Shown: positions 1,210 to 31,959, numbered from the stretch's first letter. The stretch: DNA of 32,000 nucleotides from Acaryochloris marina MBIC11017 (GCF_000018105.1 NC_009925.1:3030001-3062000), one strand, 5' to 3'. The notes: a model not told the origin generated them from the sequence alone. A program made the numbers and translations.

Positions 1210-2679
<1,470 letters not shown>

Positions 2680-2984
2680 CTGACACAGATCCTAGCATTG
2701 ACAGGCAAGGCCCATCTCTGCAATTTTGTTTAAGTTTTACAAGAATTTGTGGAGTTTTGTCCGCTTTCTAAAACAAGTCGGTCAGGGATCTCATATTGAC
2801 GCTGCCATCAGTCATTTTTTGAGATAAACACCCCCGGCCAAAAAAAGAGTGGCAACTCTTCAAAGAAACACAGTAGGCTGGCAAACGTAGGGCTATGCTG
2901 CCATTGCTGCGCTTCCCTTTGTAATGGGTGACCGTTGCCGACCGATCTAGTCTAGCCAATCTTCAAACCGTCCGGAAAACAGTG

Positions 2985-8910: not shown

Positions 8911-9339
8911 ATGTGTGTTGGATGCTACGCCATGCCGATTATGACGTTGATATCGCCAGGGCCAGAAGCGCCACCTGCAACAGCGGTTCCCTTGATTGAC
9001 TCGCCCGAAGCCAAGGTTATGCAGGTTCAACCCCAAGTTAGCGCAACCCAGGTCAGAGCTGACATTGCTGCAATGATTGCACGGTTGCCCGATTCTGCGG
9101 ACTCGGCCATTCTGCGCGAAGAATTTACAGCGATTTATCAACGCTTAGAAGGCGTCACCAACGTAGATGAAGCCAATACGATTGTGGGCGAGGGAATGCT
9201 GAATATTGCTGATCGTTTGGGATCAAATCCCAATGCAGATCGGGTGATCAAGATCTTGCATGAGGTCCAAGAACCTGAACCTCAAAAACAAGCCACCCAT
9301 CCTTTACTCAAACAATCCGCTTGGGGCTGGATTTCCTAA
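8911..9339 (+). CDS. hypothetical protein
   Basis: 142-aa ORF in an otherwise empty 800-bp gap. No motif recognised and the start is uncertain. Confidence 0.4.
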   Translation: MCVGCYAMPIMTLISPGPEAPPATAVPLIDSPEAKVMQVQPQVSATQVRADIAAMIARLPDSADSAILREEFTAIYQRLEGVTNVDEANTIVGEGMLNIADRLGSNPNADRVIKILHEVQEPEPQKQATHPLLKQSAWGWIS

Positions 9340-9496: not shown

Positions 9497-9721
9497 ATGA
9501 TCGATCAAACAAATATTCTGACGACGTTAGGATGTTCAGGTTCTCTGCTGCTGGCTTTAGCGATGCCCCAGTCGGCCTCGGCAACGGCCAATATCCAGGA
9601 TCAGATCGAGGCTGAGCAGGGTTTCCCCACTGTGGAAATGTCTCAAAGCGATCGCATGGAAGATGCCATTGGTTGTGGCTGTGCCATCTGCCAAAGAGCC
9701 CCTATCGAAACGGGTCTGTAA
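9497..9721 (+). CDS. possible small secreted protein with a C-terminal CGCAIC motif
   Basis: 74-aa ORF with a signal-like segment (LGCSGSLLLALAMPQSASA) and GCGCAICQ near the C-terminus. The RBS is weak. Confidence 0.25.
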   Translation: MIDQTNILTTLGCSGSLLLALAMPQSASATANIQDQIEAEQGFPTVEMSQSDRMEDAIGCGCAICQRAPIETGL

Positions 9722-9753: not shown

Positions 9754-10644
9754 CTAGACTGGTGCGGTGTTTCCTTGTAGAAAGGGGAGAATCATAGGTG
9801 CGATCGCATCACCAAACTCTTCTGCCATGCCCAGGCTGCCAGGTACGTAAGCAGCTTTGATATTTGGTAATTGAACCATTGCTTCCATTTCAGCTTTTGA
9901 CTTTGGTGGGGCTTGTTCCGCCACGATCACCATCACTGGCTCAGTTTGTTGTGCCAAGCCAGTTAAGAATTCCTCTCGCTCGTCTACTGGATCTAAGCCC
10001 CCTGTAACAAAGGCGGCTGGTGCATACCGGGCACCGGGTTGCTGCGTGTTTTGATATTTCTGAGCCATAAATTCAGCGGTCAATTGGGTTTCATCGACAA
10101 AGACATGGCGACGATACATCCATTTCAAAAACCCAGGACGAGTATTCAGCCCATACAGCGCTGAACCGATCATAGGTGCACTCACGAGCTGGCGAATCCC
10201 GTGGCGCATCGCCACTGGTGCCCCCATAACCGCCAGTGGACCTCGCCAAGTCGGGGCAATCAATACCATTCGCGACCAGGACTGGAGGGCGAGCGCATAC
10301 CCAGCAGCATGGCCCGCCGCTACAACCGCCACCTCTTGCGGAAAAGTATCTTGAACAAATGCCTTCAGAAATTGACGATAGAACTCCGGCTGATATGACA
10401 CCGCAGGACGGTCGGAATCGCCAAATCCCGGCCAGTCTAGAAGCGTAACCTGAAAGTGAGAGGCCAAAGCCTGGGCTAAGGTTGCCAGTTCCGCCCGAGT
10501 AGATACCGTACTAAAGGCGGGTAATAACAACACGGAAGGACCGGAACCAAGAGTTTCAGTAGCAATATTTAGGGTGTGATTTTGCCATTGCCAGGTGTAG
10601 GTGTCCAGTTGCAGTTGTGCCGATGCCATCCAATCCTCCATCAA
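9754..10644 (-). CDS. alpha/beta-fold protein whose nucleophile elbow reads GHAAG
   Basis: 296 aa with typical alpha/beta-hydrolase organisation (LLLPAFSTVS..., VAVVAAGHAAGYALAL). It is transcribed divergently from a perfect Zur-type palindrome. Confidence 0.8.
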   Translation of the reverse strand: MMEDWMASAQLQLDTYTWQWQNHTLNIATETLGSGPSVLLLPAFSTVSTRAELATLAQALASHFQVTLLDWPGFGDSDRPAVSYQPEFYRQFLKAFVQDTFPQEVAVVAAGHAAGYALALQSWSRMVLIAPTWRGPLAVMGAPVAMRHGIRQLVSAPMIGSALYGLNTRPGFLKWMYRRHVFVDETQLTAEFMAQKYQNTQQPGARYAPAAFVTGGLDPVDEREEFLTGLAQQTEPVMVIVAEQAPPKSKAEMEAMVQLPNIKAAYVPGSLGMAEEFGDAIAPMILPFLQGNTAPV

Positions 10645-10696
10645 ACCTGATCAAGATGTTATAGGCTGGTCAGGTTTAAAACTCATATTATAAAAT

Positions 10697-10711
10697 GATA
10701 ATCATTATCAC
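10697..10711. promoter_or_regulatory. Zur/Fur-type operator (perfect 7-1-7 palindrome)
   Basis: TGATAATCATTATCA is embedded in an AT-rich 96-bp divergent intergenic region. It lies 53 nt from the start of 9754..10644 and 30 nt from the start of 10741..11967. Confidence 0.75.
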
Positions 10712-10740
10712 AATGACAAACCTCACTCTTCTCATTATCT

Positions 10741-11967
10741 GTGAACCATCAGATTGACATTGCCATTATTGGGGCAGGTCCCCAGGCACTTACCCTTGTT
10801 ACCCATTTGCTGCAGAAAAAGCCTGCTCTTAAGAATCGCCTTCAGGTTTTTGACCCCAGCGGCACCTGGATGGTCCAGTGGCGGCAACAATTTGCAGCTC
10901 AGGAGATTCCCTATTTACGCTCACCCGGCGTTCATCACCCTGATGTGAAGGAAACTCTCTTCAACTTCGCGGACCATCGTCAGGAGGAGCTGTATTACCC
11001 TTACAATCGCCCTGGAACCCAACTGTTCCAAGATTTTTGTGAGACGGTCGTTGATCGGTGGAAATTACGCGATCAGGTGACTGCCGCTCAGGTGGTTCAA
11101 CTCACGCCCTTGGCAAAGAGATTTCAGCTGCAGCTGGATACGGGGGAACAGGTTGAGGCCCGGCGAGTGGTGTTGGCAACGGGTGGGGGAGCCGCCCAAG
11201 TCCCCGGTTGGACCGCCGAGGTGAATCCACATCCACCCGGACGGTTGTGTCATAGCCAGGACATTAAGCTGCCCAAGCTACCGGATCTGAACGATGAGAC
11301 GGTCCTAATTATTGGCAGTGGTCAATCCAGTGCTCATTTGGCCTTGGGGGCGATTAAGCGCGGAGCCAAGGTTTTGATGATGGCTCGACGGACCCTCAAC
11401 GAAAAACTGTTTGATGCAGAACCAGGATGGTTGGGGCCGAAGTATCTCAAGGGATTTCAGGCAGAACCCGATTGGCAGGTGCGTTGGCAAATGATCCAAG
11501 ACGCTCGCAATGGTGGATCTATTGCCCCTGAATTACTAACCCAGTTACGGCGGTTGTCCCAGTCCGGTCAAGTCACTTTTTATGAACAGTGCCAGGTGTC
11601 CCGTGCCCATTGGCAACAGGAAGCCTGGCAGGTGCAGTGTAATGTGGCCAAAACTCATGATTGTCTGGCCCATCAGCGGATTAAGCGGATCTGGTTAGCC
11701 ACGGGCACCACCACGGATATCACAGCTCATCCTTTGATGGGAGAGATATTGGAGCGATACCCTAATCAGATTGTCAATGGATTGCCAGTGCTCGATGAGC
11801 ATTTGCGCTGGCCTGGATGCGATCTGTTTTTGATGGGGCCATGGGCCGCATTGCACGTGGGTCCCGTCGCCCGGAATTTGCACGGTGGAAGAATGGCGTG
11901 CGATCGCATTGTTCCAGCCCTCACCAAAGCCAGTGTTGCCCGGACTGTGATTCATCCCCCCAGATAA
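10741..11967 (+). CDS. FAD/NAD(P)-binding oxidoreductase (two-dinucleotide-binding-domain flavoprotein)
   Basis: GTG start. First Rossmann motif is IAIIGAGPQA and the second is VLIIGSGQSSAH. 408 aa. Confidence 0.7.
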   Translation: MNHQIDIAIIGAGPQALTLVTHLLQKKPALKNRLQVFDPSGTWMVQWRQQFAAQEIPYLRSPGVHHPDVKETLFNFADHRQEELYYPYNRPGTQLFQDFCETVVDRWKLRDQVTAAQVVQLTPLAKRFQLQLDTGEQVEARRVVLATGGGAAQVPGWTAEVNPHPPGRLCHSQDIKLPKLPDLNDETVLIIGSGQSSAHLALGAIKRGAKVLMMARRTLNEKLFDAEPGWLGPKYLKGFQAEPDWQVRWQMIQDARNGGSIAPELLTQLRRLSQSGQVTFYEQCQVSRAHWQQEAWQVQCNVAKTHDCLAHQRIKRIWLATGTTTDITAHPLMGEILERYPNQIVNGLPVLDEHLRWPGCDLFLMGPWAALHVGPVARNLHGGRMACDRIVPALTKASVARTVIHPPR

Positions 11968-11985
11968 GCATCTTCGCTTATTCTT

Positions 11986-12492
11986 ATGGTTGATATCGCC
12001 CTTTCCCGGTCTCCCATTATGTCTGTTGATCCGTCTCTACCCCCTGCCCTTGCCAAAATCGTGAAGCGCTTTCAATCCATTACAGATACCAAGCGTCGGT
12101 ATGAATATTTACTGTGGTTTGCCAAGCAACTCCCGCCTTTTCCAGAGGCTGATAAGCAGCCTGACAATAAAGTCGTGGGTTGTGTATCTCAGGTTTATGT
12201 CACGGCAACGATAGAGAATGGCCTCGTTCATTTCCAAGGTGACTCGGACGCCCAAATGACCAAAGGGTTAGTGGGGTTACTGATTAAAGGGTTGGATGGG
12301 TTACCCCCAGAACAAATCGCTCGGGTCACACCTGACTTTATCCAACAAACCGGGCTCAATGTGAGCTTGACACCGTCTCGGGCCAATGGATTTTACAACA
12401 TCTTCACCACTCTGCAGCAGCTCGCCCTGACGCTCTCAGCTGCATCATCAGATTCTTTCCCCACTCAGCAATTGGAGGACACCGTTGACTAA
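11986..12492 (+). CDS. sufE: SufE-like sulfur acceptor protein
   Basis: KRRYEYLLWFAKQLP, the active-site VGCVSQVYV, GDSDAQMTKGL and LTPSRANGF match the SufE/CsdE family pattern. An alternative start is at 12019. Confidence 0.85.
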   Translation: MVDIALSRSPIMSVDPSLPPALAKIVKRFQSITDTKRRYEYLLWFAKQLPPFPEADKQPDNKVVGCVSQVYVTATIENGLVHFQGDSDAQMTKGLVGLLIKGLDGLPPEQIARVTPDFIQQTGLNVSLTPSRANGFYNIFTTLQQLALTLSAASSDSFPTQQLEDTVD

Positions 12493-13603
12493 TTCAACTG
12501 CAAACGTTCAGACATCCCAATCCCTGGATATCAATCTGCCCAAAAAAGGCATGCCCGTGACGATTATTACGGGGTTCTTGGGGAGTGGCAAAACCACGCT
12601 CCTCAACCATATTCTCAATACCAGCCAAGACCTCAAGGTGGCTGTACTGGTCAATGAGTTTGGTGATATTGATATTGACAGTCAGTTACTGACCACCATT
12701 GATCAAGATATGGTGCAGCTGACCAATGGCTGCATCTGCTGCACGATCAATGACGACCTGGTGGAGGCGGTCTATTCCGTCCTAGAACGTGAGGAAAAAA
12801 TTGATCATGTCGTTATCGAAACCACGGGGGTGGCTGATCCGCTACCGATTATTCTCACCTTTGTCAGCTCTCAACTGAAAGACGTAACGACGTTAGATTC
12901 CATTATTACCTTGGTAGATTCAGAAACCTTTACCCCTGAATGTTTTCAGAGTGAGGCGGCCCTAAATCAAATTACCTTTGGCGATATTGTCGTTCTCAAC
13001 AAAACCGACCTGACCACCGATCAAAAGGTAGAAGAACTAGAGGAGTGGATTCGTGAACGCAAATGGGGTGCACGGCTCTTGCGATCGCAACAAGGTCAGG
13101 TCCCTCTGCCACTAATTCTGGATACTGCTCTCTTTGATCCAAAGGCTTATGAAGCGGAAGCCAAAGCCTTTGCAGAGGAGGAGGCTCATCACGATCATGA
13201 CGATCACCATCACCACGATCATGACCACCATGATCATGGCCACCACCATCACGGAGATCATGATCATCATCACCATGACGATCATGATCATCACCACCAT
13301 CATTCGGATCATCTCACCGTCGACGGCTTCTCATCTATGGTCTTTGAAAGCGATCGGCCCTTTATCCTAGAAAAAATGCAGGCTTTCGTGACCGATCATC
13401 TACCAGAAGAAGTCTTTCGAGCCAAAGGTTTTATGTGGTTTGAGAAAAATACATCCCGCTATATTTTTCAGCTCAGTGGCAAGCGCTATACAATGGATGC
13501 TGATCAGTGGCCGGATGCCCCAAAAAATCAGTTAGTCTTTATTGGCCGCAACATTGACAAAGCACAGCTTAACCAACTGCTAACGGATTGTTTAGCTCCC
13601 TAA
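12485..13603 (+). CDS. COG0523 (CobW/ZigA/Zng1-type) metallochaperone GTPase with a His/Asp-rich insert
   Basis: P-loop GFLGSGKTTLLN, the metal-binding CICCT motif, NKTDL, and a 42-residue His/Asp tract. The TTG start overlaps the sufE-like stop by 8 nt. An alternative ATG start at 12548 gives MPVTIITG. Confidence 0.9.
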   Translation: MTNSTANVQTSQSLDINLPKKGMPVTIITGFLGSGKTTLLNHILNTSQDLKVAVLVNEFGDIDIDSQLLTTIDQDMVQLTNGCICCTINDDLVEAVYSVLEREEKIDHVVIETTGVADPLPIILTFVSSQLKDVTTLDSIITLVDSETFTPECFQSEAALNQITFGDIVVLNKTDLTTDQKVEELEEWIRERKWGARLLRSQQGQVPLPLILDTALFDPKAYEAEAKAFAEEEAHHDHDDHHHHDHDHHDHGHHHHGDHDHHHHDDHDHHHHHSDHLTVDGFSSMVFESDRPFILEKMQAFVTDHLPEEVFRAKGFMWFEKNTSRYIFQLSGKRYTMDADQWPDAPKNQLVFIGRNIDKAQLNQLLTDCLAP

Positions 13604-16230: not shown

Positions 16231-16848
16231 TTAGACTTGTTGCATCTGTCGCCAAGATTGCGACAACACTTTTGCTGCAGACTGGGTAAAAACGACTGTT
16301 AGCAGCAACCCCACCGCTAAATCCGGCAGGATAGACTGAGTCAGGGAGACCAATCCTGCTGCCGCTAACACAGAGGTATTGGCGATAATGTCGTTGCGAG
16401 AACATAACCACACTGAAGACATATTCAGGTTATCTTGCCGATGTCGGGTGAGGAGTTGGAGACAGAACAAATTTGCAAGCAAAGCGATAATGCCCACTAG
16501 GCCCATGGTTGAAGCTTCTGGACTCGCACCGGTAAACAGTTGATAGCTGGCTCTAGCAAAAACACCAATCGCCAACAAGAACATAATCAAACCCTTAAGA
16601 AAAGCGGCTCCTGCTTGGGCTTTAACGCTCTTATTGAGGACATACAAACTGCTGGCATAGACCAAGGCATCCCCCAGCATATCCAACGAATCCCCAGTGA
16701 GGGAGAGAGATTCTGCCCGAATCCCTGCCCCAAATTCAACGAAAAACATTAGAAGGTTGATCAGCAGAACGGCCCAAAGCACTTTTGCCTGCTGCTTTCT
16801 CAGCTTTGACAATTCCTTGGCTTTGGCTTGGCAGCAATGATCACCCAT
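16231..16848 (-). CDS. cation diffusion facilitator (CDF) family divalent-metal exporter, short form
   Basis: Six-TM pattern with SLSLTGDSLDMLGDAL (the TM2 D/H metal-site region) and a CC pair at the N-terminus (MGDHCCQ). I prefer the ATG at 16848 because GGAG lies 7 nt upstream. No long cytoplasmic C-terminal domain is present. Confidence 0.75.
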   Translation of the reverse strand: MGDHCCQAKAKELSKLRKQQAKVLWAVLLINLLMFFVEFGAGIRAESLSLTGDSLDMLGDALVYASSLYVLNKSVKAQAGAAFLKGLIMFLLAIGVFARASYQLFTGASPEASTMGLVGIIALLANLFCLQLLTRHRQDNLNMSSVWLCSRNDIIANTSVLAAAGLVSLTQSILPDLAVGLLLTVVFTQSAAKVLSQSWRQMQQV

Positions 16849-16933
16849 AGTGGCTCTCCACATTCAAACATTCAAAGCAGTATTAGAACGTTACCGCACC
16901 CAATTCAAACATTCAAGCCAACATTAGAATGAC

Positions 16934-17299
16934 TTATTCAACCAGTTGGTTCAGTGTATGGTGGAGAATCTCAGCGACGCGCTGATCCTTGAGAGAGTAG
17001 TACGCTAATTTGCCATCATTGCGATACTTCAGAATTTGGAGATCCCGTAGCTTTCGTAAGTGGTGGGATGCCGTTGCGATCTTCATCCCCAGCAAAGACG
17101 CAACATCACAAACACAGAGTTCAGTTCCTTCACTCAGGGCATACAAAATCTTTAATCGGGACCGATCCGCTAACGCACTGAACAGCACTTGAGCCTCCAC
17201 CAGCAGATCTTCTCCCGGCAGTGCTTCATTCGCTTGGGTGACCAAGTCTTGGTTAAAACAACGGACTTGGCAAATATCTGTGGGCTTAGTCTGGGTCAC
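16934..17299 (-). CDS. ArsR/SmtB family metal-sensing repressor
   Basis: ELCVCDVASLLGMKIATASHHLRKLRDLQILKYRNDGKLAYYSL is the classical ArsR wHTH with the CVC (alpha3) motif. N-terminal cysteines occur in DICQVRC. GTG start. Confidence 0.88.
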   Translation of the reverse strand: MTQTKPTDICQVRCFNQDLVTQANEALPGEDLLVEAQVLFSALADRSRLKILYALSEGTELCVCDVASLLGMKIATASHHLRKLRDLQILKYRNDGKLAYYSLKDQRVAEILHHTLNQLVE

Positions 17300-18124: not shown

Positions 18125-19607
18125 CAATGGCACTGACTTAAGAAGTCAGGAAAAGGCTACAAGTCTTGATAGATATAGGATCAAGACTTGCACGCCATAA
18201 ACTTCTGCCTTTCACTATGTCTGAGTCAGCCGAAATTCTCAAGCAGCAATTTTCCCAAAGCCTGGGTTTACCGTGGACAGATATCCTTCTAGCCTCAAGG
18301 TTAGAGGAACTCCTGAAAGAAGAAGCATTCTCCTATCGCAACCGGATATATAGCCCCATCGTTACGCTGTGGGCCATGCTTTACCAAGTGCTATCAGCCG
18401 ATAAAAGCCTTCGTAACACAGTCAAATGCATCACGACTTGGCTCACAGCGGCTGGCATCCAACCGCCCTCATCTGATACCGGAGCCTACAGCAAAGCCAG
18501 AAGTCGCTTTCCAGAGTCACTGTTGCAACGTTTAATTCCCGAAAGCGCTGAGTGCTTAGCGCAACCCCTCTCCCCAGAGCACCTCTGGTGTGGTCGGCCC
18601 GTCAAGGTCTACGACGGAACCACCGTGTTGATGGCTGATAGTGCGGCCAACCAAGCATCATATCCACAACATGGCAATCAAACAGCAGGCTGTGGTTTTC
18701 CCATCGCTCGCTTGGTAGTGTTCTTCTGCTTGGTTACCGGTGCAGTGGCGTCAGCTTGTATTGCCTCCTGGGACACCAGTGAAATTGTCATGAGTCGTTT
18801 GCTCTATCAAGACCTTGAGGTCGGTGATGTGGTCATGGCGGACCAAGCTTATGGCAGCTATGTTGATCTAGCCATCATTCAACAACACAGGGCTGATGGA
18901 GTGTTGCGTAAACATCATGCTCGCAAGACTGATTTCCGCAAAGGCAACAAGCATGGCATTGGTGATCATCAGGTGACATGGCATAAGCCAGCCCAACGGC
19001 CTGAGCACATGAGTGAGCAAGATTTTGCCCTGATTCCTCAAACATTGGTCGTTAGAGAGGTGTGTTTGCGCTTATCCCTTAAGGGCTTTCGCGACCAGCA
19101 CATTATTGTGGTGACGACGCTGCTGGATGCTCAACGCTACAGCGCTGGGCAACTGACTCGCTTGTATGGCTGGCGTTGGCCAATGGCGGAAGTCAATCTG
19201 CGCCATCTCAAAACCACCTTAAAAATGGAGATGCTCAGTGCCAAAACTCCGGATATGGTGCGCAAGGACATTTGGGTACATTTGTTGGGCTATAACCTAC
19301 TCAGAAGTCTCATGGAACTTGCGGCACCGCTAGCAGATAATGCTAGAACTCAACTGTCTGTGCAAGGAGCACGACAACACTTCAATCAGATGCTTGCTTT
19401 GTTGGCGACAGCCAACCGTGCGACCAGAAAGCGGTTGTTTACTCATCTACTTGAGACCATGGCAGCCGATCTATTACCCTCTCGACCGAATCGGCACGAA
19501 CCGAGAGTCGTCAAACGCAGACCCAAATCTTTCCCGCGAATGCGACAACCTCGCTCTGCTCTCAAAGCTAAGCTAGCTGTTTGATTGAGCTTAAGTCAGT
19601 GCCATTG
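18125..19607 (+). mobile_element. IS4-family insertion sequence (1483 bp), apparently intact
   Basis: Perfect 18-nt terminal inverted repeats: CAATGGCACTGACTTAAG at 18125-18142 and its reverse complement at 19590-19607. The element is flanked by the identical direct repeat ATCTAACGGAT at 18114-18124 and 19608-19618. Confidence 0.85.
18217..19584 (+). CDS. IS4-family DDE transposase
   Basis: Candidate DDE blocks are VYDGTTVLMADS, VVMADQAYGSY and YGWRWPMAEVNLRHLKTTLKM (Y-R-E-K region). The ATG at 18217 is the first ATG inside the track ORF, which starts at 18166. Confidence 0.88.
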   Translation: MSESAEILKQQFSQSLGLPWTDILLASRLEELLKEEAFSYRNRIYSPIVTLWAMLYQVLSADKSLRNTVKCITTWLTAAGIQPPSSDTGAYSKARSRFPESLLQRLIPESAECLAQPLSPEHLWCGRPVKVYDGTTVLMADSAANQASYPQHGNQTAGCGFPIARLVVFFCLVTGAVASACIASWDTSEIVMSRLLYQDLEVGDVVMADQAYGSYVDLAIIQQHRADGVLRKHHARKTDFRKGNKHGIGDHQVTWHKPAQRPEHMSEQDFALIPQTLVVREVCLRLSLKGFRDQHIIVVTTLLDAQRYSAGQLTRLYGWRWPMAEVNLRHLKTTLKMEMLSAKTPDMVRKDIWVHLLGYNLLRSLMELAAPLADNARTQLSVQGARQHFNQMLALLATANRATRKRLFTHLLETMAADLLPSRPNRHEPRVVKRRPKSFPRMRQPRSALKAKLAV

Positions 19608-19758
19608 ATCTAACGGATAGGTCTCAGGGGTGCGAGAATTATTTCAAAGCATTGGCAAATAGCTTGTGCCGAGCGTCCCTTGCAGACCCTTGTCATACCA
19701 ATTCCATATATGTGTGACTTGTATTATGGGAGTAGCGCGTTGCTGATACTTATCCCTC

Positions 19759-20238
19759 ATGCCCAGACCCTTACGAATTGATATCTGTGAAAGTGAAGAC
19801 ACACTCAAACGTTTATTACGTCAACAATCCTCCGGTCGTCGCAAAGAACGCTTGCAAGCCCTCTACTGGCTCAAAAGTGGTCAAGTCACCACTCGCATGG
19901 AGTTGGCAACCCTGACCGGACGAGGGGAATCCACGGTGTATCGCTGGATCAAACTCTATAAATCAGGGGGATTACAGGCAATGCTGGAGATTCCTACCTC
20001 TCCTGGGAAGCCCCCCATGATTGGTGGAGAGGTCCTCGAAAAGCTGAAAGCTCGTCTAGCTGACCCCAGGGGCTTTGAGAGCTACGGGGCGATTCAACAA
20101 TGGCTTTTAGATGAGTGTGGATTAGACGTACCCTACAAAACGGTTCATCAAACCGTGCATTATCGGCTCAAAGCCAAGCTCAAAGTTCCTCGACCTCGCT
20201 CACGCAAGACAGAGGAAGCTCAACAACAAGCCTATTAA
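19759..20238 (+). CDS. IS630-family transposase, N-terminal HTH part (OrfA)
   Basis: Winged-helix/HTH region (RMELATLTGRGESTVYRWIKLYKSGGLQAM), typical of IS630/Tc1 transposase N-termini. Confidence 0.8.
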   Translation: MPRPLRIDICESEDTLKRLLRQQSSGRRKERLQALYWLKSGQVTTRMELATLTGRGESTVYRWIKLYKSGGLQAMLEIPTSPGKPPMIGGEVLEKLKARLADPRGFESYGAIQQWLLDECGLDVPYKTVHQTVHYRLKAKLKVPRPRSRKTEEAQQQAY

Positions 20239-20251
20239 AAAACTTCCTCGT

Positions 20252-20818
20252 GTGATTGAGGTAATGACCCGCTATTTTGCCCAAGGACACCCAGTGCGCT
20301 ACTGGTGCATGGATGAAAGCCGCTGGGGACTCAAGACACTCACGGGTCGGGTTCTAACGTTGCGGGGTGTCAAACCTGTGGTGACGGTACAGTGGCCCCG
20401 AGAGGCTTTCTGGCTCTATGGCGCTGTCGAACCTCTCACAGGAGACAGTTTCTTCTATCGGTTTTCTCATCTCGATAGTGTTTGTTTTGAGCGCTTCCTG
20501 GAGCAATTCAGCTTGGCGTTTCCCCAGAGTCTCAATCTGATGCAAATAGATCAAGCCGCAGCCCATATGGCGACTTGGGTTCGATGGCCTGAGAATGTGT
20601 TGCCGATTGTACAGCCGTCTCATAGTCCAGAACTCAATCCGGCAGAGCGATTATGGCAGGACCTAAGAAAGCCTTTCAAAGGCAAAAACTTTGATTCTAT
20701 TGGGGCACTGGAGACCGCTTTATTTGAGCATATCAATACCCTCTCCCAGAAGGTGGTGGCTTCTCTAACGGGATATTCTTATATCTTGGATGCTTTGACT
20801 ATAAAGGTCACTCAATAA
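20252..20818 (+). CDS. IS630-family transposase, DDE catalytic part (OrfB)
   Basis: YWCMDESRWGL, LMQIDQAAAHM and PSHSPELNPAERLWQDLR are the DDE blocks of IS630/Tc1-mariner-type transposases. This ORF is in the +1 frame relative to OrfA. Confidence 0.8.
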   Translation: MIEVMTRYFAQGHPVRYWCMDESRWGLKTLTGRVLTLRGVKPVVTVQWPREAFWLYGAVEPLTGDSFFYRFSHLDSVCFERFLEQFSLAFPQSLNLMQIDQAAAHMATWVRWPENVLPIVQPSHSPELNPAERLWQDLRKPFKGKNFDSIGALETALFEHINTLSQKVVASLTGYSYILDALTIKVTQ

Positions 20819-20829
20819 GTGAATTGGTA

Positions 20830-21279
20830 TCAGGTTACAACACGACACACAATCTGTGGCTTTGTGGTTGAAATAACATCAACGCAATGATTTAGGCAAC
20901 AAAAACCATAGTGGCTGAATGGACCTGGGTAGTCAGAAGTGGCGAACGTGCTAACCTCCATAAACTCTAGATAAGCCGAACTTTTGTAAAGACGAGCTAA
21001 CTTGCCGACGTAGTTGTCTTGAGGTGCATTATCGGCATAAGACTCGTTCGCGACGTTGTAACAAATGTACTCAGCAAAAAATATTTCATAAATAGCACAG
21101 CCTTCGGTAGTTTCAATGTTACGCAGCCCAGATATTGTTGTACCAGCTATTTCCATGTCATGCTCTGGGCCATTCGCTGTAGCTTCGGCTAAGACTAGAC
21201 GTAGAGTATTATCTTCTGGTTCGGTAATTGATTCGAGGTACAGATACTTACTTCTGTTGATTTGATCGAAAGCTTCCAT
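20830..21279 (-). CDS. hypothetical acidic Cys-containing protein, compositionally atypical
   Basis: 149-aa ORF starting 6 nt after the DUF2063 gene stop. It looks lower in GC than its neighbours and has no HIP1 site. There is no TM segment and no recognised family. Its stop codon coincides with the IS630 terminus. Confidence 0.5.
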   Translation of the reverse strand: MEAFDQINRSKYLYLESITEPEDNTLRLVLAEATANGPEHDMEIAGTTISGLRNIETTEGCAIYEIFFAEYICYNVANESYADNAPQDNYVGKLARLYKSSAYLEFMEVSTFATSDYPGPFSHYGFCCLNHCVDVISTTKPQIVCRVVT

Positions 21280-21285
21280 GAGAGC

Positions 21286-22095
21286 CTAACTATTCTCATC
21301 TAAGCCAAGCATAAATCCGGATATCCATCCTCGCTGAACCCAGATTGGAAGCAAGGCTGCCACGTCAATCTCATCGTTGTGCTCAAACTGGGCGCAAATC
21401 TCTCCAAACGGAGCACCGGAAGCAAACGCCTGTAGGAGCTGCCACTCAGCAACATTGGGCAAGTCAATGCGGGTTTCATACTGGTCTCGCCAGAGAAACA
21501 GATTCACGTCGCCTTCATTTAGATCGATGGTCTCGGTACTGGCGGCATTGGCCTGATTCACTTGCCAAATTCGGTGAACCGGATAGGGGGAGGTCATTAA
21601 GACACTATGGTCGGGGAGTTGGAGCACCAGTTCGGGCCAACGGTCAGGCGGCACTTGACCCAAGGCCGCCAAATCTAAACCCGGTTGGTCTGAACTGTTA
21701 AAGATGCAGTGCCAATGCCACTCTAAGCGGGCTACATCCGGCAGATAGGGTAACGAAGCCGCTGGTTCAAACGCTGCGATAAATGCCGGGAGCTGTTCCC
21801 CATAATCTCCGAGATCGTGGGATTGAGAGGGATTGCGGCGGATATATTGCCGAGCCATGGCGGTAAAAAACTGGACCCCCACCAACCGACAACAGACGGG
21901 ATAAATATCTTCGAGGGCACGGCTCAATTTACCGACGACGCTGCCTTGGTAAGCCGATAAACCTCGTTCGAAGGAGAGGTGTTCAGTGCTGCGCATTTGA
22001 GGTTGGAGCTGCTGGATGCTGTCGGCATCTTTGGTTGAGATCGCACCATAAAACAACCGCTGTAACTCTCTTAATTCTGGGGGCGGTGTTGACAT
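21286..22095 (-). CDS. DUF2063-family partner protein of the MNIO enzyme (BufC-like)
   Basis: 269 aa. It overlaps the upstream DUF692 gene by 25 nt. The N-terminus (LQRLFYGAI...) and its position directly after DUF692 match the conserved DUF692-DUF2063 pair. Confidence 0.75.
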   Translation of the reverse strand: MSTPPPELRELQRLFYGAISTKDADSIQQLQPQMRSTEHLSFERGLSAYQGSVVGKLSRALEDIYPVCCRLVGVQFFTAMARQYIRRNPSQSHDLGDYGEQLPAFIAAFEPAASLPYLPDVARLEWHWHCIFNSSDQPGLDLAALGQVPPDRWPELVLQLPDHSVLMTSPYPVHRIWQVNQANAASTETIDLNEGDVNLFLWRDQYETRIDLPNVAEWQLLQAFASGAPFGEICAQFEHNDEIDVAALLPIWVQRGWISGFMLGLDENS

Positions 22096-22901
22096 AGATA
22101 GGTGTCGGCCTGCTGGGCTTCGGCCATCAAAACATCAAAGCTGGGAATATCCGTATCCCATTCAATCAACGTCGGCACCGGACCAAACCGCTGGAGCGCT
22201 TGCTGATAGAGCGTCCAGACTCCAGGCTGGACTGGATAGCCGTGGGTATCAAATAAAAAGTGGTCCTGCTCTTCATAACCCGCTAGATGGATCTCTTTAA
22301 TCCGATCGACGGGCAACGCATCCAGATAATCCAAGGGGTCAAAGCCATGATTGGTGGCATTGACATAGACATTGTTAATATCCAAAAGCAGATGACAATC
22401 GGCCTCAACTAAAAGGGCGGCTAAGAACTGCCATTCGGTCAGGCTGTTGTGGCGAAACTGAAGATAGGGCGATAGGTTCTCAATCAAAATCCGGCGACCG
22501 AGAAATTCCTGTACCTGCGAAATCCGATCGGCAACGTAATGGAGCACTGATTCCGTATAGGGCAGCGGTGCTAAGTCATTGAAGTAATGGCCGTTGACGG
22601 ACACCCAGGCCAGATGATCAGAGACATGAACCGGTTCGATCCGATCCGCCAGTTGCTTGAGCTGAGTTAGGTAGTCCATATTCAGCGGATCTGCTGACCC
22701 CAGGGACAGACTAACGCCATGGAGGGTGATCGGATACTGGGCTCGAATTTGTTCTAGGTGATACAGGGGCAATCCACCCCCCAAATAATTGTCGGAGAGG
22801 GCTTCTAGCCAGGGTATGGCTGGTTGATGGGTGAGGATATGGGCGTAATGTTGCGATCGCAACCCAATCCCAGCACCCTGAATTGCAGTCATGGCAACCA
22901 T
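22071..22901 (-). CDS. DUF692/UPF0276 multinuclear non-heme iron oxidase (MNIO; BufB/MbnB-like)
   Basis: GAGIGLRSQHY, LEALSDNY, HGVSLSLGS, SDHLAW, LIENLS, LLLDINNVYVN, IHLAGY and LIEWD follow the TIM-barrel DUF692 block order. I prefer the ATG at 22901 because GGAG lies 6 nt upstream. The longer track ORF (to 22946) would read through a strong hairpin. Confidence 0.85.
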   Translation of the reverse strand: MVAMTAIQGAGIGLRSQHYAHILTHQPAIPWLEALSDNYLGGGLPLYHLEQIRAQYPITLHGVSLSLGSADPLNMDYLTQLKQLADRIEPVHVSDHLAWVSVNGHYFNDLAPLPYTESVLHYVADRISQVQEFLGRRILIENLSPYLQFRHNSLTEWQFLAALLVEADCHLLLDINNVYVNATNHGFDPLDYLDALPVDRIKEIHLAGYEEQDHFLFDTHGYPVQPGVWTLYQQALQRFGPVPTLIEWDTDIPSFDVLMAEAQQADTYLCQHRPQN

Positions 22902-22921
22902 AAAATACTCCAAAACGTAAG

Positions 22922-22946
22922 GTGCCTGCTTTTCACAAGCAGGCAC
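22922..22946 (-). terminator. hairpin between the precursor and enzyme genes (possible partial terminator or attenuator)
   Basis: On the minus strand: GTGCCTGCTT-gtgaa-AAGCAGGCAC, a perfect 10-bp stem, then CTTACGTTTTGG. It lies 25 nt after the precursor stop and 20 nt before the MNIO start. Confidence 0.5.
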
Positions 22947-22971
22947 TCAAACTTTGCATGATTGAAACGAC

Positions 22972-23286
22972 CTAACCTTCTTTCTTGCCTTCTTCAACCG
23001 CTTCAGCAGGGGGGGCAGCTTCTTTCAAGGTAGATCCAACAATCTTTTCACAGGTGCCAGCAGGCACATAAATCCACTCTTCTGGATCATTATCAACGGT
23101 GGCTTTACCAGAGCAGTCATGCTTGCTAGTACCACAGTCATTGAGACCAGCCTTGACGATACCGGCGCACTTTTCATAACCGGGCTTACCAGCAACCGCA
23201 TCATCCGATTGAGTTGCCACTAGGCCGAGAGCCAGCACACCGGATAAAGCAGTGGTAACAGCAACGGCTTTAGTCGTCGTTTTCAT
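22972..23286 (-). CDS. DUF2282-family RiPP precursor with a Sec signal peptide (bufferin BufA1-like)
   Basis: Signal peptide [24 protein letters not shown], then [47 protein letters not shown]. This shows the four conserved Cys and the EWIYVP.GTCEKI block of DUF2282. The tail is acidic and Ala/Pro-rich. Confidence 0.85.
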
Positions 23287-24594: not shown

Positions 24595-25644
24595 CTAGAA
24601 AAATCCTTGACCTCGTGCACTTTGGGTCCAAAGCTGCCATTCTCCTTGCTGGCCCCCTAAAGCTAGGGTCTGACCATCTGGACTCCAAGCCAGGGCTGAA
24701 CCACTGATACTTTTTTGCGCTTGGACTAGCTTACCCCCACCTTGCCACAGACAGAGAAAGTCATCCGCTGCAGCAGATACTAAAAGAGTGGTATTAGGCT
24801 GAAAGGCAATGGCATTGACTGCTTGCGTGTGCTCTTCTAACAGCTCTGCTTCCCAGCCACTGCCTAGGCGGTGCCAAGTCGTAATGCAGTTACCACTGGC
24901 TGCGGACAGCAGGGGGTCAGCATCAACGGATTCAGCATCCGCTGACCAGGCTATTTGCCGAACTTTGCCAGGGAAACCCGTCATCCGCCAGGGTACGTCT
25001 TCTTCTGAAGGCCACACCACCATAGTGCGATCTAAATTTCCTGACGCTAAATATTGCCCGTCCGGCGACCAAGAGACACAGATACTCGATCCTGGAAGCT
25101 CTCGAATGGCGGGATCTTGATCCCAATCCTGCCAAATTTTGACCCCTTGATGGCCACCGACCGCCAGCCAATCCTGTTGCGGATGCCAGGCTAAATCTAA
25201 AACGGAAGAGTTTTCAAAGGCGAGAGTCGTCAGGACTTGCTGGGTCTCAACCTCCCAAACCTGGGCATAGCGCCCCAGGCTAAACACCAATTCTGGACGC
25301 CGAGGATGCCAGGCCAGTTGATCCACCCAGGTGCGAGGGTTCTCTAAACAGGTAAACAGCGTCGGTGCGTCGCCGCTCATCTCCCAAATCGAAACACGGC
25401 CATCTTGCCCTCCTGCTGCGAGAAAACGGCCATCAGCGGAGTAAGCCAATGCATCCACTGACTGTCCGGTGCCCGTTTGCAGACTATGGGTTTGTTGGGT
25501 GATTCGATTGAGACATTGAACATTACCCGCTCCATCGCAGGCGGCCACCTGCTGGCTATTGGGTGACCAGGCAATGGCCGTCACATAATCATCTAAACGC
25601 CCACGCCATTTGCGTCCAAGTCGTGGCTGAGTTACACGAGGCAA
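24595..25644 (-). CDS. WD40-repeat beta-propeller protein
   Basis: Repeated units such as AWSPNSQQVAACDGAGNV, AYSADGRFLAAGGQDGRVSIWE, SWSPDGQYLASGNLDRTMVVW and AWSPDGQTLALGGQQGEWQLW. The TTG start overlaps the COG0523 stop by 13 nt. Confidence 0.85.
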   Translation of the reverse strand: MPRVTQPRLGRKWRGRLDDYVTAIAWSPNSQQVAACDGAGNVQCLNRITQQTHSLQTGTGQSVDALAYSADGRFLAAGGQDGRVSIWEMSGDAPTLFTCLENPRTWVDQLAWHPRRPELVFSLGRYAQVWEVETQQVLTTLAFENSSVLDLAWHPQQDWLAVGGHQGVKIWQDWDQDPAIRELPGSSICVSWSPDGQYLASGNLDRTMVVWPSEEDVPWRMTGFPGKVRQIAWSADAESVDADPLLSAASGNCITTWHRLGSGWEAELLEEHTQAVNAIAFQPNTTLLVSAAADDFLCLWQGGGKLVQAQKSISGSALAWSPDGQTLALGGQQGEWQLWTQSARGQGFF

Positions 25645-26600
25645 GCTTGGAACCCCTTTCTTAACTGATCTTCATCTAAATTGCGGCCAATAAACACCAA
25701 CTCATTCTTGCGGGTTTCGCTAGCCTTCCAAGGGCGATCTGCACGGCCATCAAACAACATATGGACCCCCTGAAACACAAATCGCTGATCTTCTCCGGCA
25801 ATATTCAAAATTCCCTTCATCCGAAAGATATCAGGCCCCTTGGTTTGCAACAGATTGCCTAGCCAACCGTTGAGCCGTTCGCCATCAATCTCCCCCGATT
25901 CTGTTAAGGCCACCGACCCTACGGTTTCGTCATGCTCATGGGCATCTTCTCCCAAAAACTCAGGGTCGATCTCTAAAGCTCGGTCTAGATCAAAGGCACT
26001 CACACCTAAGATGGACTCCATCTCCACTGCCGCATCCTGAGTGCGATAAATTTTGGTCATGGCATTCATGGACCGGATTCGATTTTCCAGATCCGCCAAA
26101 TCCGCTTCGCTGACTAAATCGGTTTTATTGAGTAACACCACATCCGCAAAAGCGATTTGCTCCTGGGCTTCATCCGCATCCCAATGCTGGTGGATATGCT
26201 TGGCATCCACGACCGTCACTATCGCATCCAGATTGAGCTGGGTCTGCATATCTTCATCCACAAAGAAGGTCTGGATCACCGGAGCTGGATCCGCTAGCCC
26301 TGTGGTCTCAATCACCATATGGTCGAACTTATCTCGTCGTCGCATCAAGTTGCCAATAATCCGAATCAGATCGCCTCGCACGGTGCAACAGATGCAGCCA
26401 TTGTTCATTTCAAAGATTTCTTCATCGGCATCGATCACCAGCTGATTATCAATGCCCACCTCACCAAATTCATTGACAATCACGGCTACTTTTTTGCCAT
26501 GTTCGTGGGTGAGAATGCGGTTGAGTAAGGTTGTTTTTCCGGCTCCCAGATAGCCCGTTAGAACGGTGACAGGGACGGTATCTATTGCAGCGGTAACCAT
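25632..26600 (-). CDS. COG0523 (CobW/ZigA/Zng1-type) metallochaperone GTPase, no His-rich tract
   Basis: P-loop GYLGAGKTTLLN, CICCT and NKTDL, plus the C-terminal CobW_C-like block FRMKGILNIAGEDQRFVFQGVH. A Zur-like box lies upstream. Confidence 0.9.
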   Translation of the reverse strand: MVTAAIDTVPVTVLTGYLGAGKTTLLNRILTHEHGKKVAVIVNEFGEVGIDNQLVIDADEEIFEMNNGCICCTVRGDLIRIIGNLMRRRDKFDHMVIETTGLADPAPVIQTFFVDEDMQTQLNLDAIVTVVDAKHIHQHWDADEAQEQIAFADVVLLNKTDLVSEADLADLENRIRSMNAMTKIYRTQDAAVEMESILGVSAFDLDRALEIDPEFLGEDAHEHDETVGSVALTESGEIDGERLNGWLGNLLQTKGPDIFRMKGILNIAGEDQRFVFQGVHMLFDGRADRPWKASETRKNELVFIGRNLDEDQLRKGFQACLV

Positions 26601-26628
26601 GACGATGACCTCATCGGAGAATGGTTGA

Positions 26629-26643
26629 GATAACGATTATCAT
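26629..26643. promoter_or_regulatory. Zur/Fur-type operator upstream of the COG0523-WD40 operon
   Basis: The minus strand reads ATGATAATCGTTATC. The window offset by one base reads TGATAATCGTTATCT and matches TGATAATnATTATCA at all but two positions. It lies about 30 nt upstream of the start at 26600. Confidence 0.6.
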
Positions 26644-27133: not shown

Positions 27134-28114
27134 ATGAATGTTGTTTTTATTTTGGGAAATGGATTTGATCTTAACCTGGGATTAAACACCAGCTACTCCG
27201 ATTTTTACAACTACTATAAAAAACAAGTTTCATCAAACGAAGTAATCAAAGAGTTAAAGGAAAATATAGATTCAAATACAGAAAACTGGTCTGATCTAGA
27301 GCTTCAATTGGGGCGCTATACCTCAAGACTAAAAGATCAAAATGACTTCGATATTTTCTATTTCGATATAGTAGACAATCTAAGAGACTATCTTGATCTT
27401 GAAGAAGATAGTTTTGACTACTCTGCATTTGACAAGTCCGTATTGTTGAGAGATCTTGTTGAGCCTGAAAGAGTTTTATCTCAGAGAGAAAGAAATAAAC
27501 TAACAGATTGGTATCGAAAATTCGGAGGTAATATAAACACTAACATTTTGACATTTAATTATACTCAAACAATTGAAAAAATACTTGGCAAAAATGCCAC
27601 TAGTCAGCCGATTGGCACAAATAATAAAGGCGTACAAGTTTTACTAAATAGTATTGACCACATACATGGATATCTTGAAGATGGTCTCGTACTAGGAGTA
27701 AATGATGAGGAACAAATTGAAAATGAAAAATTACGTCTGTCTCAGGAGGTTGTCGAGGCCATTGTTAAGCCCATGCACAATCAAGAGTTAGGGCATACGA
27801 GAGATGATCGCTGCATGCAAGTTATATCTGCAGCGAACCTAATATTTGTGTTTGGCTGTTCGATTGGTAAATCTGATCAGATGTGGTGGGAAAAAGTTGG
27901 CAGCACACTAGGGGAATCTTGTCGGCTAGTTATATTTCATCGAGGTAGTAATGTGAATAGCCAGAATGATATCCTGTATGCTCGTGAGAATCGTAAGATA
28001 ATAAATCGATTTTTATCACTAACGAACTTGGATGAAGAAAAAAGGGACATTGCAAAGCAGTATATTACCGCTGCTGTGACTAAAGACCTGTTCAAGCTTG
28101 TCAAAAGTACATAA
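27134..28114 (+). CDS. AbiH-like abortive-infection (phage defence) protein
   Basis: The N-terminus MNVVFILGNGFDLNLGLNTSYSDFYNYY matches the hallmark GNGFDL..GL.TSY.DF start of the AbiH family. The 326-aa length fits. The gene is strongly AT-rich with no HIP1 sites, unlike the flanking DNA. Confidence 0.72.
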   Translation: MNVVFILGNGFDLNLGLNTSYSDFYNYYKKQVSSNEVIKELKENIDSNTENWSDLELQLGRYTSRLKDQNDFDIFYFDIVDNLRDYLDLEEDSFDYSAFDKSVLLRDLVEPERVLSQRERNKLTDWYRKFGGNINTNILTFNYTQTIEKILGKNATSQPIGTNNKGVQVLLNSIDHIHGYLEDGLVLGVNDEEQIENEKLRLSQEVVEAIVKPMHNQELGHTRDDRCMQVISAANLIFVFGCSIGKSDQMWWEKVGSTLGESCRLVIFHRGSNVNSQNDILYARENRKIINRFLSLTNLDEEKRDIAKQYITAAVTKDLFKLVKST

Positions 28115-30873: not shown

Positions 30874-31443
30874 ATGGAAACGCTGACCATCAATGCTTCA
30901 AAAGCAGCATTAACTGAAGCGCAGTTTTACGACATTTGTCGTCAAAATGAAGGATTACGCTTTGAAATGACCGCACAGGGAGATTTAATCGTTATGCCTC
31001 CAGTGGGCGGTCTAAGTGGAAGTCGTGAATCTGATTTGAATGCAGATGTGCAGATTTGGAATCGGCGTACTGGCTTAGGTCGGGTATTTAGTTCTTCAAC
31101 GGTGTTTCAATTGCCCAATGGTGCGAAGCGATCACCGGATGTTGCCTGGGTCGAACAAAGTCGCTGGGATACCCTCTCAAGAGAAGCGCAAGAACGATTC
31201 CCACCCCTAGCTCCCGATTTTGTGATTGAGTTACGGTCTCGGACCGATGACCTAGCTGCACTACAAGCGAAAATGCAGGAATATGCAGAAAACGGCGTGC
31301 GGCTCGGTTGGCTAATCAATCCACAGGATCAGCAAGTAGAAATTTATCAACCAGGGAAAGATACAGAAGTGCGATCGCTGCCAACTCAACTGTCAGGAGA
31401 AGAGATATTACCAGGTTTTACCCTGGATTTATCGCCGTTTTAG
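30874..31443 (+). CDS. Uma2 family (DUF820) endonuclease
   Basis: FEMTAQGDLIVMPPVGG, RSPDVAWV, PDFVIELRS and GVRLGWLINPQDQQVEIY are the standard Uma2/DUF820 blocks found in cyanobacteria. Confidence 0.85.
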   Translation: METLTINASKAALTEAQFYDICRQNEGLRFEMTAQGDLIVMPPVGGLSGSRESDLNADVQIWNRRTGLGRVFSSSTVFQLPNGAKRSPDVAWVEQSRWDTLSREAQERFPPLAPDFVIELRSRTDDLAALQAKMQEYAENGVRLGWLINPQDQQVEIYQPGKDTEVRSLPTQLSGEEILPGFTLDLSPF

Positions 31444-31499: not shown

Positions 31500-31895
31500 T
31501 TAGGCTAAAGCCCCCACTTCAGCGCAGTTCTGGCATAGGCCAAAGAATTCTAGGGTGTGGTAAAAGACTTGAAATTTCTGGGTTTGGGCAAGCTCTTGTT
31601 CTAACTCGTGGACTGGGCAGTTCAGCAATGGCATGGAAGTGCCACAGTTGACACAAGTCAGATGATGCCGATGAGCAGAAGCAATACTATAGACTGCTTC
31701 ACCATTCGTCAAAGTACGCGTTTGCACCTTGCCATGCTGTTGGAGAACCTTGAGGGCACGGTAAATGGTTGCCAACCCCACTCGTTGTTGCTGTTTTTTT
31801 AACTCTTGGTGCAGATCCTGAGCAGAGAACTCTTGGGGCGTGGAAAAGAGGACTTCCAACACGCGCCGCTGATGAGGGGTTAGTTTCTCTGGCAT
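31500..31895 (-). CDS. zur: Fur-family metalloregulator, most likely Zur
   Basis: LTPHQRRVLEVL...GLATIYRALKVL is the DNA-binding helix. The HRHHLTCVNCG and CQNC motifs give two CxxC pairs plus a His cluster. I prefer the ATG at 31895 because AGGAG lies upstream. The Zur assignment, rather than Fur or PerR, rests on the neighbouring COG0523 genes and Zur-type boxes. Confidence 0.75.
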   Translation of the reverse strand: MPEKLTPHQRRVLEVLFSTPQEFSAQDLHQELKKQQQRVGLATIYRALKVLQQHGKVQTRTLTNGEAVYSIASAHRHHLTCVNCGTSMPLLNCPVHELEQELAQTQKFQVFYHTLEFFGLCQNCAEVGALA

Positions 31896-31959
31896 GCTCA
31901 ACTCCTTACTGCACCTGGAATGAGAACAGTTTTTTGGCAAATCACAAGATTATCAAACA

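Follow-up and report, generated by a model that had tools for sequence, protein, structure and literature searches.

A predicted Zur box before flavoprotein, SufE and COG0523 genes in Acaryochloris marina MBIC11017, and a recurrent sufE neighbourhood in cyanobacteria

A perfect 7-1-7 palindrome separates two divergent genes of Acaryochloris marina MBIC11017, an alpha/beta-fold gene on one side and, on the other, a flavoprotein gene followed by sufE and the gene of a histidine-rich COG0523 GTPase. The locus lies in a stretch of 32,000 nucleotides (nt) analysed as a whole (GCF_000018105.1, NC_009925.1:3030001-3062000; hereafter the window). It raises the question of which regulator reads the palindrome, which of the flanking genes obey it, and what a sulfur acceptor does in such company. 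A previous reading made from the DNA letters alone (the sequence-only reading) had taken the palindrome for a Zur box serving both flanks, and had seen in the flavoprotein and SufE an undescribed link between zinc limitation and sulfur or iron-sulfur (Fe-S) trafficking, or a redox step. The comparative analysis described here indicates that the palindrome is probably the operator of a Zur encoded 21 kb away (31500-31895) and would control a flavoprotein-SufE-COG0523 operon. The features of the locus are the following.

9754 to 10629, minus strand (longest open reading frame to 10644): alpha/beta-fold protein, Abhydrolase_6.
10630 to 10740, both strands: divergent promoter region, from the sequence and a promoter scan; promoters predicted.
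10696 to 10710, no strand: predicted Zur operator, exact TGATAATCATTATCA, 31.4 bits, an island kept in eight relatives.
10741 to 11967, plus strand: flavoprotein of 408 residues binding flavin adenine dinucleotide (FAD) and NAD(P), with PF13434, PF13738 and PF13454; orthologue of SYNPCC7002_G0132.
12019 to 12492, plus strand (longest open reading frame from 11986): SufE sulfur acceptor, PF02657 at 143.5 bits against a cut-off of 27.
12485 to 13603, plus strand: histidine-rich COG0523 GTPase, putative zinc metallochaperone, cobW at 190 bits and CobW_C at 86 bits, far above the cut-offs.

The sequence-only reading had the palindrome and its perfect symmetry right, and placed it one position too far to the right, at 10697-10711. 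The exact 15-mer occurs once in the window and agrees perfectly with the 7-1-7 inverted repeat TGATAATNATTATCA that serves as the criterion for cyanobacterial Zur boxes. A search allowing up to three mismatches returns 11 matches in the 32-kb window, against 0.98 expected; most of them are the two strands of three real sites, together with the CAT/GAT-rich histidine tract at 13255-13293. A weight matrix was built solely from 70 orthologous promoters of other genomes and then scanned over the window, where it singles out three sites, of 31.4, 24.4 and 18.1 bits; in 200 shuffled windows, the best score is 17.5 bits and the 95th percentile 10.7. The first site precedes the flavoprotein gene by 30 nt, the second the zur gene by 65 nt and the third a COG0523-WD40 gene pair by 28 nt. 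In the spacer alignment of eight relatives, AATGATAATC[A/G]TTATCA is invariant about 30 nt before a conserved GTG start, while the flanks have diverged, so that box and start codon are the sole conserved parts. Judged from motif, conservation and gene context, the palindrome is almost certainly a Zur operator.

Conservation was surveyed around the flavoprotein gene in 80 loci. Relatives of this protein are encoded at no fewer than 580 sites of the genome collection, of which the 80 are the closest matches. They span many cyanobacterial families, the nearest being Acaryochloris metagenome-assembled genomes at 93% identity, and do not form a phylogenetically balanced sample. Seventy-five loci lie outside the three closest relatives and have enough upstream sequence, and 70 of these (93%) carry a box with at most two mismatches within 260 nt of the flavoprotein start, at a median distance of 43 nt. 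The background for such a box is 4.1% of random windows from the same loci and 0.17% of shuffled windows. Across the 80 loci, boxes with at most one mismatch precede the flavoprotein gene (55), short COG0523-like genes (28), COG0523 genes (11), znuA (13 of 26), hemB paralogues (5 of 8) and zur, and 89 of the 94 such boxes are within 250 nt of a gene start. Paralogues of folE also stand behind the motif, and no iron uptake gene does so in these loci. By its annotated content, this gene set is a zinc regulon. The box and the gene order, whose conservation the sequence-only reading had named as a check, differ in their spread: the box is general, whereas the order flavoprotein-SufE-COG0523 occurs only in loci L001 to L003 and the metagenome contig L088, all from close Acaryochloris relatives. 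Zur boxes are often paired as two overlapping sites 6 nt apart (5323/5329 in L009, 4028/4034 in L014, 26628/26634 and 31954/31960 in the window), resembling the two overlapping sites described for Anabaena all3515.

The window itself supplies a candidate regulator and two further boxes.

24595 to 26600, minus strand: COG0523 gene of the WD40-associated type (25632-26600) and WD40 protein gene (24595-25644), by Pfam.
26628 to 26642, no strand: second Zur box AGATAACGATTATCA, 18.1 bits, third best in the window, upstream of this second COG0523 gene.
31500 to 31895, minus strand: Fur-family regulator, most probably Zur, by PF01475 and structural relatives.
31960 to 31974, no strand: third Zur box TGATTATCATTCTCA, 24.4 bits, second best in the window, upstream of the zur ATG at 31895.

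The Fur-family gene, which extends over 31500-31895 or 31500-31940, was correctly called by the sequence-only reading. The closest solved relatives of its product are 7NE9 (E 1.7e-29), then M. tuberculosis FurB/Zur (2O03) and 3MWM; we take 7NE9 to be the Zur of Synechococcus WH8102 and 3MWM that of S. coelicolor. In other genomes, its homologues adjoin znuABC and the flavoprotein gene. The protein is thus most probably Zur, and the box before its gene suggests that it may be autoregulated. In other cyanobacteria, the COG0523 protein encoded downstream of sufE and the alpha/beta-fold gene is 76-94% identical to the one behind the second box. The pairing of COG0523 with WD40 close to zur has already been pointed out for A. 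marina (Barnett 2012), and clustering with WD40 genes is on record for the prokaryotic part of COG0523 subfamily 5 (Haas et al. 2009, PMC2770081). Conservation in orthologous promoters, boxes at both zur and the COG0523-WD40 pair in the same window, and the zinc-gene context all bear out the identification of the palindrome as a Zur box.

For the flavoprotein family, this control is known from experiment in one strain. Over 98% of its length, the A. marina protein shares 53% identity with the pAQ7 gene product G0132 of PCC 7002, the sole FAD-type gene in the pAQ7 hemB-folE cluster, and G0132 has a perfect TGATAATAATTATCA about 36 nt upstream, in a divergent spacer. Its expression is induced in a zur mutant and by the chelator TPEN (Ludwig et al. 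2015, PMC4628125). The pAQ7 cluster (hemB-II, folE-II, G0131, G0132; PMC4628125) therefore resembles the window in its orthologous flavoprotein gene, perfect box and response to Zur, but its divergent partner G0131 is a short P-loop and CobW_C protein instead of an alpha/beta-fold protein, and neither sufE nor a histidine-rich COG0523 gene stands behind G0132. The sequence-only reading had presented the flavoprotein as a newcomer to Zur regulons, which cannot be upheld in view of the published response of G0132 and of the box before 93% of the 75 orthologues. According to the survey, Zur control of this family is a rule across cyanobacteria. The flavoprotein gene also appears to be the conserved, ancestral target of the box, because the box stays with it where an insertion parts the alpha/beta-fold gene from the pair (L002 and L003). 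In 35 of the 80 loci, the gene immediately upstream of the flavoprotein gene, on the opposite strand, encodes a member of the short P-loop and CobW_C family to which G0131 belongs (L081 7363-7860). Tandem genes, two or three, for such proteins of about 250 residues diverge from the flavoprotein gene with a Zur box between (L007-L080), and the CxCC motif was not seen in the one representative of the family inspected.

In Anabaena sp. PCC 7120, Zur (FurB/All2473) is described with a 7-1-7 operator overlapping -10 boxes (Napolitano et al. 2012 via PMC3323870; PMC10957091), with targets that include COG0523 proteins, znuABC and zinc-free paralogues (PMC3323870, PMC10957091). The palindrome of the window is of the same kind and likewise faces a COG0523 target. 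The accessible portions of these papers (PMC3323870, PMC10957091) report neither a flavoprotein of the window's family nor SufE among the Anabaena Zur targets.

The transcription unit to the right of the box is tight: three genes are closely packed on one strand, as had been proposed, and Pfam confirms the four gene calls of the sequence-only reading (Abhydrolase_6, FAD/NAD(P)-binding, SufE at 143 bits, cobW with CobW_C). Two of its distances hold for the longest open reading frames and should probably be revised. The divergent spacer, given as 96 bp, is probably 111 bp with the alpha/beta-fold start at 10629, and the gap of 18 nt between the flavoprotein gene and sufE is probably 51 nt, since the second sufE ATG, at 12019, is the sole start conserved in relatives; it also fits the length of other SufE proteins. 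The 8-nt overlap of sufE and the COG0523 gene holds for the TTG start at 12485, which has GGAGG 7 nt upstream. Next to the box, a crude promoter scan, whose counts are not above those of shuffles, finds -10-like hexamers: rightward candidates TAAAAT (10691-10696) and GATAAT (10697-10702), which abut or overlap the box, and a leftward perfect TATAAT (10692-10687, minus strand) 3 nt from it. A hairpin over the flavoprotein stop codon (-10.3 kcal/mol, z -2.9) was considered as a terminator or attenuator and rejected because it is not conserved: L002 and L003 have a disrupted stem, and L088 has none. No conserved terminator was found at the flavoprotein-sufE junction, the Rfam scan of the operon region returned no RNA element, and base composition shows no break around the operon.

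The last gene of the unit encodes a COG0523 protein with GFLGSGKTT (Walker A), GCICC (CxCC) and a His/Asp tract of about 45 residues in the linker; its best solved relative is YjiA. Equivalog cut-offs are not reached (ZigA 198 against 600 bits, CobW 186 against 332, PRK11537 170 against 361), and membership, assigned from profile scores, holds at the family level only. With B. subtilis YciC/ZagA, A. baumannii ZigA and COG0523 subfamilies 1 and 5 (Haas et al. 2009, PMC2770081), it shares the cobW GTPase domain, the CxCC motif, the histidine-rich stretch and the upstream Zur box. It differs from YciC/ZagA and ZigA in overlapping sufE, and the translational coupling that this overlap would bring is not described for those systems.

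The flavoprotein contains two dinucleotide-binding motifs, GAGPQA at residues 11-16 and GSGQSS at 192-197, as well as an LATG motif, and its score with PF13434 is 45.4 bits against a cut-off of 21.3. Its family has several invariant cysteines, including conserved ones at positions 100, 284 and 300. Sequence searches found no close solved relative. The best fold matches of its structure model (pLDDT, the predicted local distance difference test score, 85) are SidA, PvdA, DesB and DfoA, with template-modelling (TM) scores of 0.68-0.74, 15-17% identity and E about 1e-17, followed by the bacillithiol disulfide reductase Bdr/YpdA. The modelled flavoprotein thus has the fold of class B, NADPH-dependent N-hydroxylating monooxygenases. 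With SidA, PvdA, IucD, DesB and DfoA, it has in common the fold (TM about 0.70), the FAD and NADPH motifs, LATG and the PF13434 score above cut-off, but it is only 15-17% identical to them and has no siderophore genes nearby. Cysteines at positions 100, 284 and 300 are, to our knowledge, not typical of the N-hydroxylating monooxygenases.

A role as siderophore or zincophore hydroxylase would suit this fold, and the gene context argues against it. No siderophore synthetase gene, of the non-ribosomal peptide synthetase (NRPS) or the NRPS-independent (NIS) type, and no other siderophore gene adjoins the flavoprotein gene in the 80 loci, where its neighbours are COG0523-like genes, znuABC, ArsR/SmtB genes and cation-diffusion-facilitator (CDF) genes; because of this lack of siderophore-pathway neighbours, the protein is not called a siderophore hydroxylase here. 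Some homologues are named CzcO by JGI, as a partner of a CDF exporter, an unlikely role in that the box implies induction by zinc shortage, not excess. The label may come from the neighbourhood of ArsR and CDF genes: in 15 of the 80 loci, the flavoprotein gene is directly followed by an ArsR/SmtB gene of the family found at 16934-17299 in the window, often with a CDF gene nearby. In the window, this ArsR/SmtB-family regulator gene and a CDF exporter gene at 16231-16863, both on the minus strand, make up a zinc-excess module. On another contig (L083 1625-4493), a perfect Zur box precedes the genes of a 373-residue flavoprotein of the pyridine-nucleotide-disulfide-oxidoreductase type and a FeoB-like transporter; this contig also carries a Zur-boxed sufE-COG0523 pair, and its flavoprotein would be a second kind in a Zur regulon.

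For the alpha/beta-fold gene on the left, the more probable start is the ATG at 10629, preceded by GGAGG and in agreement with database homologues of 291 residues. Its product has GHAAG at the nucleophile elbow, and among 52 homologues this position reads GHA or GHS (Ala or Ser); the expected place of the catalytic histidine, located by eye against the usual motif, reads PGSLGMAEE, without histidine. The protein has the hydrolase fold and is probably a non-catalytic relative, not a hydrolase. In L002 and L003, an insertion of about 1 kb separates its gene from the box, which remains with the flavoprotein gene, and the divergent-pair control of the sequence-only reading is accordingly not conserved on this side. 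The alpha/beta-fold gene may be co-repressed in A. marina as a local feature only, because the box adjoins its likely -10 element. The insertion in L003 carries a 200-residue open reading frame, Uma2-like by eye. Just before the ribosome-binding site of the alpha/beta-fold gene, its presumed 5' leader contains an 11-nt inverted repeat (10643-10653/10667-10677, AAACCTGATCA / TGGTCAGGTTT, 13-nt loop).

Window SufE shares 60-82% identity with its counterparts in Nostocales, Oscillatoriales and others. Cys66 in GCVSQV and the C-terminal TPSRANGFYNIF motif are invariant in 13 cyanobacterial SufE sequences, and the protein scores below the cut-offs of the enterobacterial SufE and CsdE equivalogs. 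By these sequence features, it is of the canonical cyanobacterial type. An extra, zinc-specific sufE paralogue was considered and set aside: identity and motifs speak for the canonical type, and the alpha/beta-fold partner is present in the same cluster. In a neighbour-joining tree, SufE proteins linked to a Zur box or to COG0523 group apart from those followed by the alpha/beta-fold gene, a split that taxonomy could explain equally well. With E. coli SufS-SufE and CsdA-CsdE and with Slr1419, window SufE shares the SufE domain, the persulfide-accepting cysteine and the conserved C-terminal motif, but its gene differs from the SufS-SufE and CsdA-CsdE systems in lying in a predicted zinc-regulated operon, with no cysteine desulfurase gene in the window. 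Cyanobacterial sufE genes lie outside the sufBCDS operon, and SufE is essential in Synechocystis (PMC7058544).

The surroundings of sufE were examined in 85 cyanobacterial loci, 74 of them with room for a downstream neighbour. A homologue of the alpha/beta-fold gene (49-56% identical) follows sufE directly in 42 of these 74, and most of the long loci of this kind continue with a Zur box, a COG0523 gene whose product is 76-83% identical to the second COG0523 of the window, and a WD40 gene. In L087 and L089, sufE is followed directly by this WD40-associated COG0523 gene and the WD40 gene. In five further loci (L083, L085, L086, L103 and L122), a box with no or one mismatch lies 17-73 nt before sufE, which is then directly followed by a histidine-rich COG0523 gene. 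Judged from gene order, the window holds all parts of this widespread sufE/alpha-beta-fold/COG0523/WD40 neighbourhood in a rearranged order, and sufE appears coupled to two different, paralogous COG0523 subfamilies in different lineages. Anabaena SufE is alr3513, two locus-tag numbers from the Zur target zepA (all3515), which fits the Nostoc PCC 7524 locus L084; there, unlike in the window, the boxes stand before a CobW_C gene and between a 303-residue protein gene and a cobW-WD40 pair, not before sufE.

The link between zinc and sulfur or redox metabolism thus changes its footing. The adjacency of flavoprotein gene and sufE, on which the sequence-only reading had based it, is confined to close Acaryochloris relatives and so says little for a redox or sulfur step in common. 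The comparative synteny of SufE with two COG0523 subfamilies independently speaks for a connection between SufE and zinc chaperones. At the level of gene order, the association of SufE, alpha/beta-fold protein, COG0523 and WD40 protein is real in the genomes surveyed and apparently undescribed. It is subject to two caveats: the 80 metagenome loci were taken as nearest matches and not as a sample balanced by phylogeny, and common descent may have raised the counts. No mention of SufE in connection with Zur or COG0523-WD40 was found in the searchable literature, nor do the supplements of PMC10957091 mention SufE, CobW or FAD.

Several observations weigh against a simple operon under Zur. Strict repression of a single-copy, essential sufE would be lethal; in A. 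thomasi, the alpha/beta-fold and flavoprotein genes diverge around a 1-mismatch box, but another gene, in place of sufE and COG0523, follows the flavoprotein gene; the predicted Zur control of the alpha/beta-fold gene is not conserved; the promoter scan, crude as it is, gave no internal promoter for sufE; and the 15-mer by itself does not separate Zur from Fur, so that the Zur assignment rests on context. Some of these points would be accommodated if the box controlled the flavoprotein gene only, with sufE and COG0523 transcribed mainly from a zinc-independent promoter of their own, inside or just after the flavoprotein gene, and with a position that is a relic of rearrangement and carries no zinc link. 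SufE is of an essential, housekeeping type, its adjacency to the flavoprotein gene is limited to one clade and absent in A. thomasi, and in the common arrangement the box stands not before sufE and the alpha/beta-fold gene but further on, before COG0523. Set against this are the five loci in which a near-perfect box directly precedes sufE and then COG0523, the spacer of only 18-51 nt with no recognisable promoter or conserved terminator, and the histidine-rich COG0523 gene, a type that is a classical Zur target and here overlaps sufE by 8 nt. This explanation is unlikely on balance.

The regulator could also be an iron-responsive Fur, the operon then belonging to an iron/Fe-S regulon in which SufE, as a component of Fe-S assembly, would be an expected member and COG0523 would be iron-related. 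The repeat TGATAATNATTATCA is also the 7-1-7 consensus of Bacillus Fur, the 15-mer being the core of the classical Fur box; the regulator is therefore named here from context, not from the sequence alone. In an Anabaena strain with altered furA expression, alr3513 changed 7.9-fold (taken without its sign), and it is negative in the table column taken to be direct FurA binding. In the 80 loci, however, the genes standing behind the same motif include znuA, zur, COG0523 and the paralogues of hemB and folE, with no iron uptake gene among them; in PCC 7002, deletion of zur affects the orthologue that has a perfect box; and the regulator beside the third box is most like Zur structures. An iron-responsive box is, on this evidence, very improbable. 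That the palindrome is merely a chance inverted repeat binding no regulator, in an AT-rich spacer that does hold other small palindromes, is scarcely credible: none of 200 shuffles reaches the score of the box, and 70 of 75 orthologous promoters, drawn from many families, have kept the motif in place and in sequence amid diverged flanks, data that effectively refute this explanation already.

With Zur as the probable regulator of the whole unit, the following mechanism is proposed. When zinc is sufficient, zinc-loaded Zur dimers would bind 10696-10710 and block RNA polymerase at the predicted rightward -10 element. When zinc is short, Zur would leave the DNA, and flavoprotein (10741-11967), SufE (12019-12492) and COG0523 (12485-13603) would be transcribed as one unit, sufE and COG0523 being translationally coupled through their overlap. 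In the Acaryochloris marina clade, sufE and COG0523 would have been placed behind the flavoprotein gene, out of the widespread neighbourhood described above. In this picture the site, its conservation, the identities of the genes and their synteny are observed, whereas binding by Zur, the positions of the promoters, co-transcription and every biochemical role are inferred. As judged from its essential role in Synechocystis, SufE cannot be expressed only under zinc shortage, and a second promoter, leaky repression or a second sufE copy is therefore expected. Because SufE is needed for Fe-S assembly, it is probably also expressed independently of zinc, or from a second copy.

More tentatively, SufE, COG0523 zinc chaperones, the non-catalytic alpha/beta-fold protein and the WD40 protein might form a conserved cyanobacterial module, a proposal drawn from gene order alone (alpha/beta-fold gene behind sufE in 42 of 74 loci, followed by box, COG0523 and WD40; sufE and COG0523 behind a box in other lineages) and, as it stands, doubtful. 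Such a module could use persulfide or thiol chemistry to mobilise zinc or hand it over at cysteine-rich sites. Alternatively, it could shield Fe-S assembly from mis-metalation when the zinc supply changes.

Other features of the window include a minus-strand operon at 20830-23286 that encodes a small protein of the DUF2282/BufA1 type (22972-23286), an MbnB/TglH/ChrH DUF692 enzyme (22071-22946), a DUF2063/HvfC_N protein (21286-22095) and a 149-residue open reading frame. It is presumably a bufferin-type metallophore cluster of the ribosomally synthesised and post-translationally modified peptide (RiPP) class, and a DUF2282/DUF692-type cluster is also found near the flavoprotein gene in A. thomasi (L168 2788-4801). 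Two small plus-strand genes, both without a Pfam match, recur in zinc islands: a 74-residue protein (9497-9721) with a lipobox-like LTTLGC and a C-terminal GCxCxxC, in seven loci, and a 142-residue protein starting MCVGCYAM (8911-9339), in six. The thiC gene (1210-2586) is immediately preceded by an ordinary thiamine pyrophosphate (TPP) riboswitch (2594-2687, minus strand, 64.5 bits). The zinc-related genes are interspersed with a homologue of the abortive-infection gene AbiH, a member of the Uma2 family and two genes for transposases (27134-28114, 30874-31443 and 18166-20818).

The regulatory part of these findings is textbook, Zur repression of a COG0523 operon. The flavoprotein family, previously seen once in this context, in a transcriptome, is among the most consistently Zur-boxed genes of cyanobacteria, and its substrate would reveal an unrecognised part of the response to zinc shortage. 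Across cyanobacterial orders, an essential SufE stands beside zinc-chaperone genes; if this association is functional, Fe-S and sulfur trafficking would be tied to the allocation of zinc, and a way towards the clients of the WD40-associated (ZNG1-like) COG0523 subfamily would open up.

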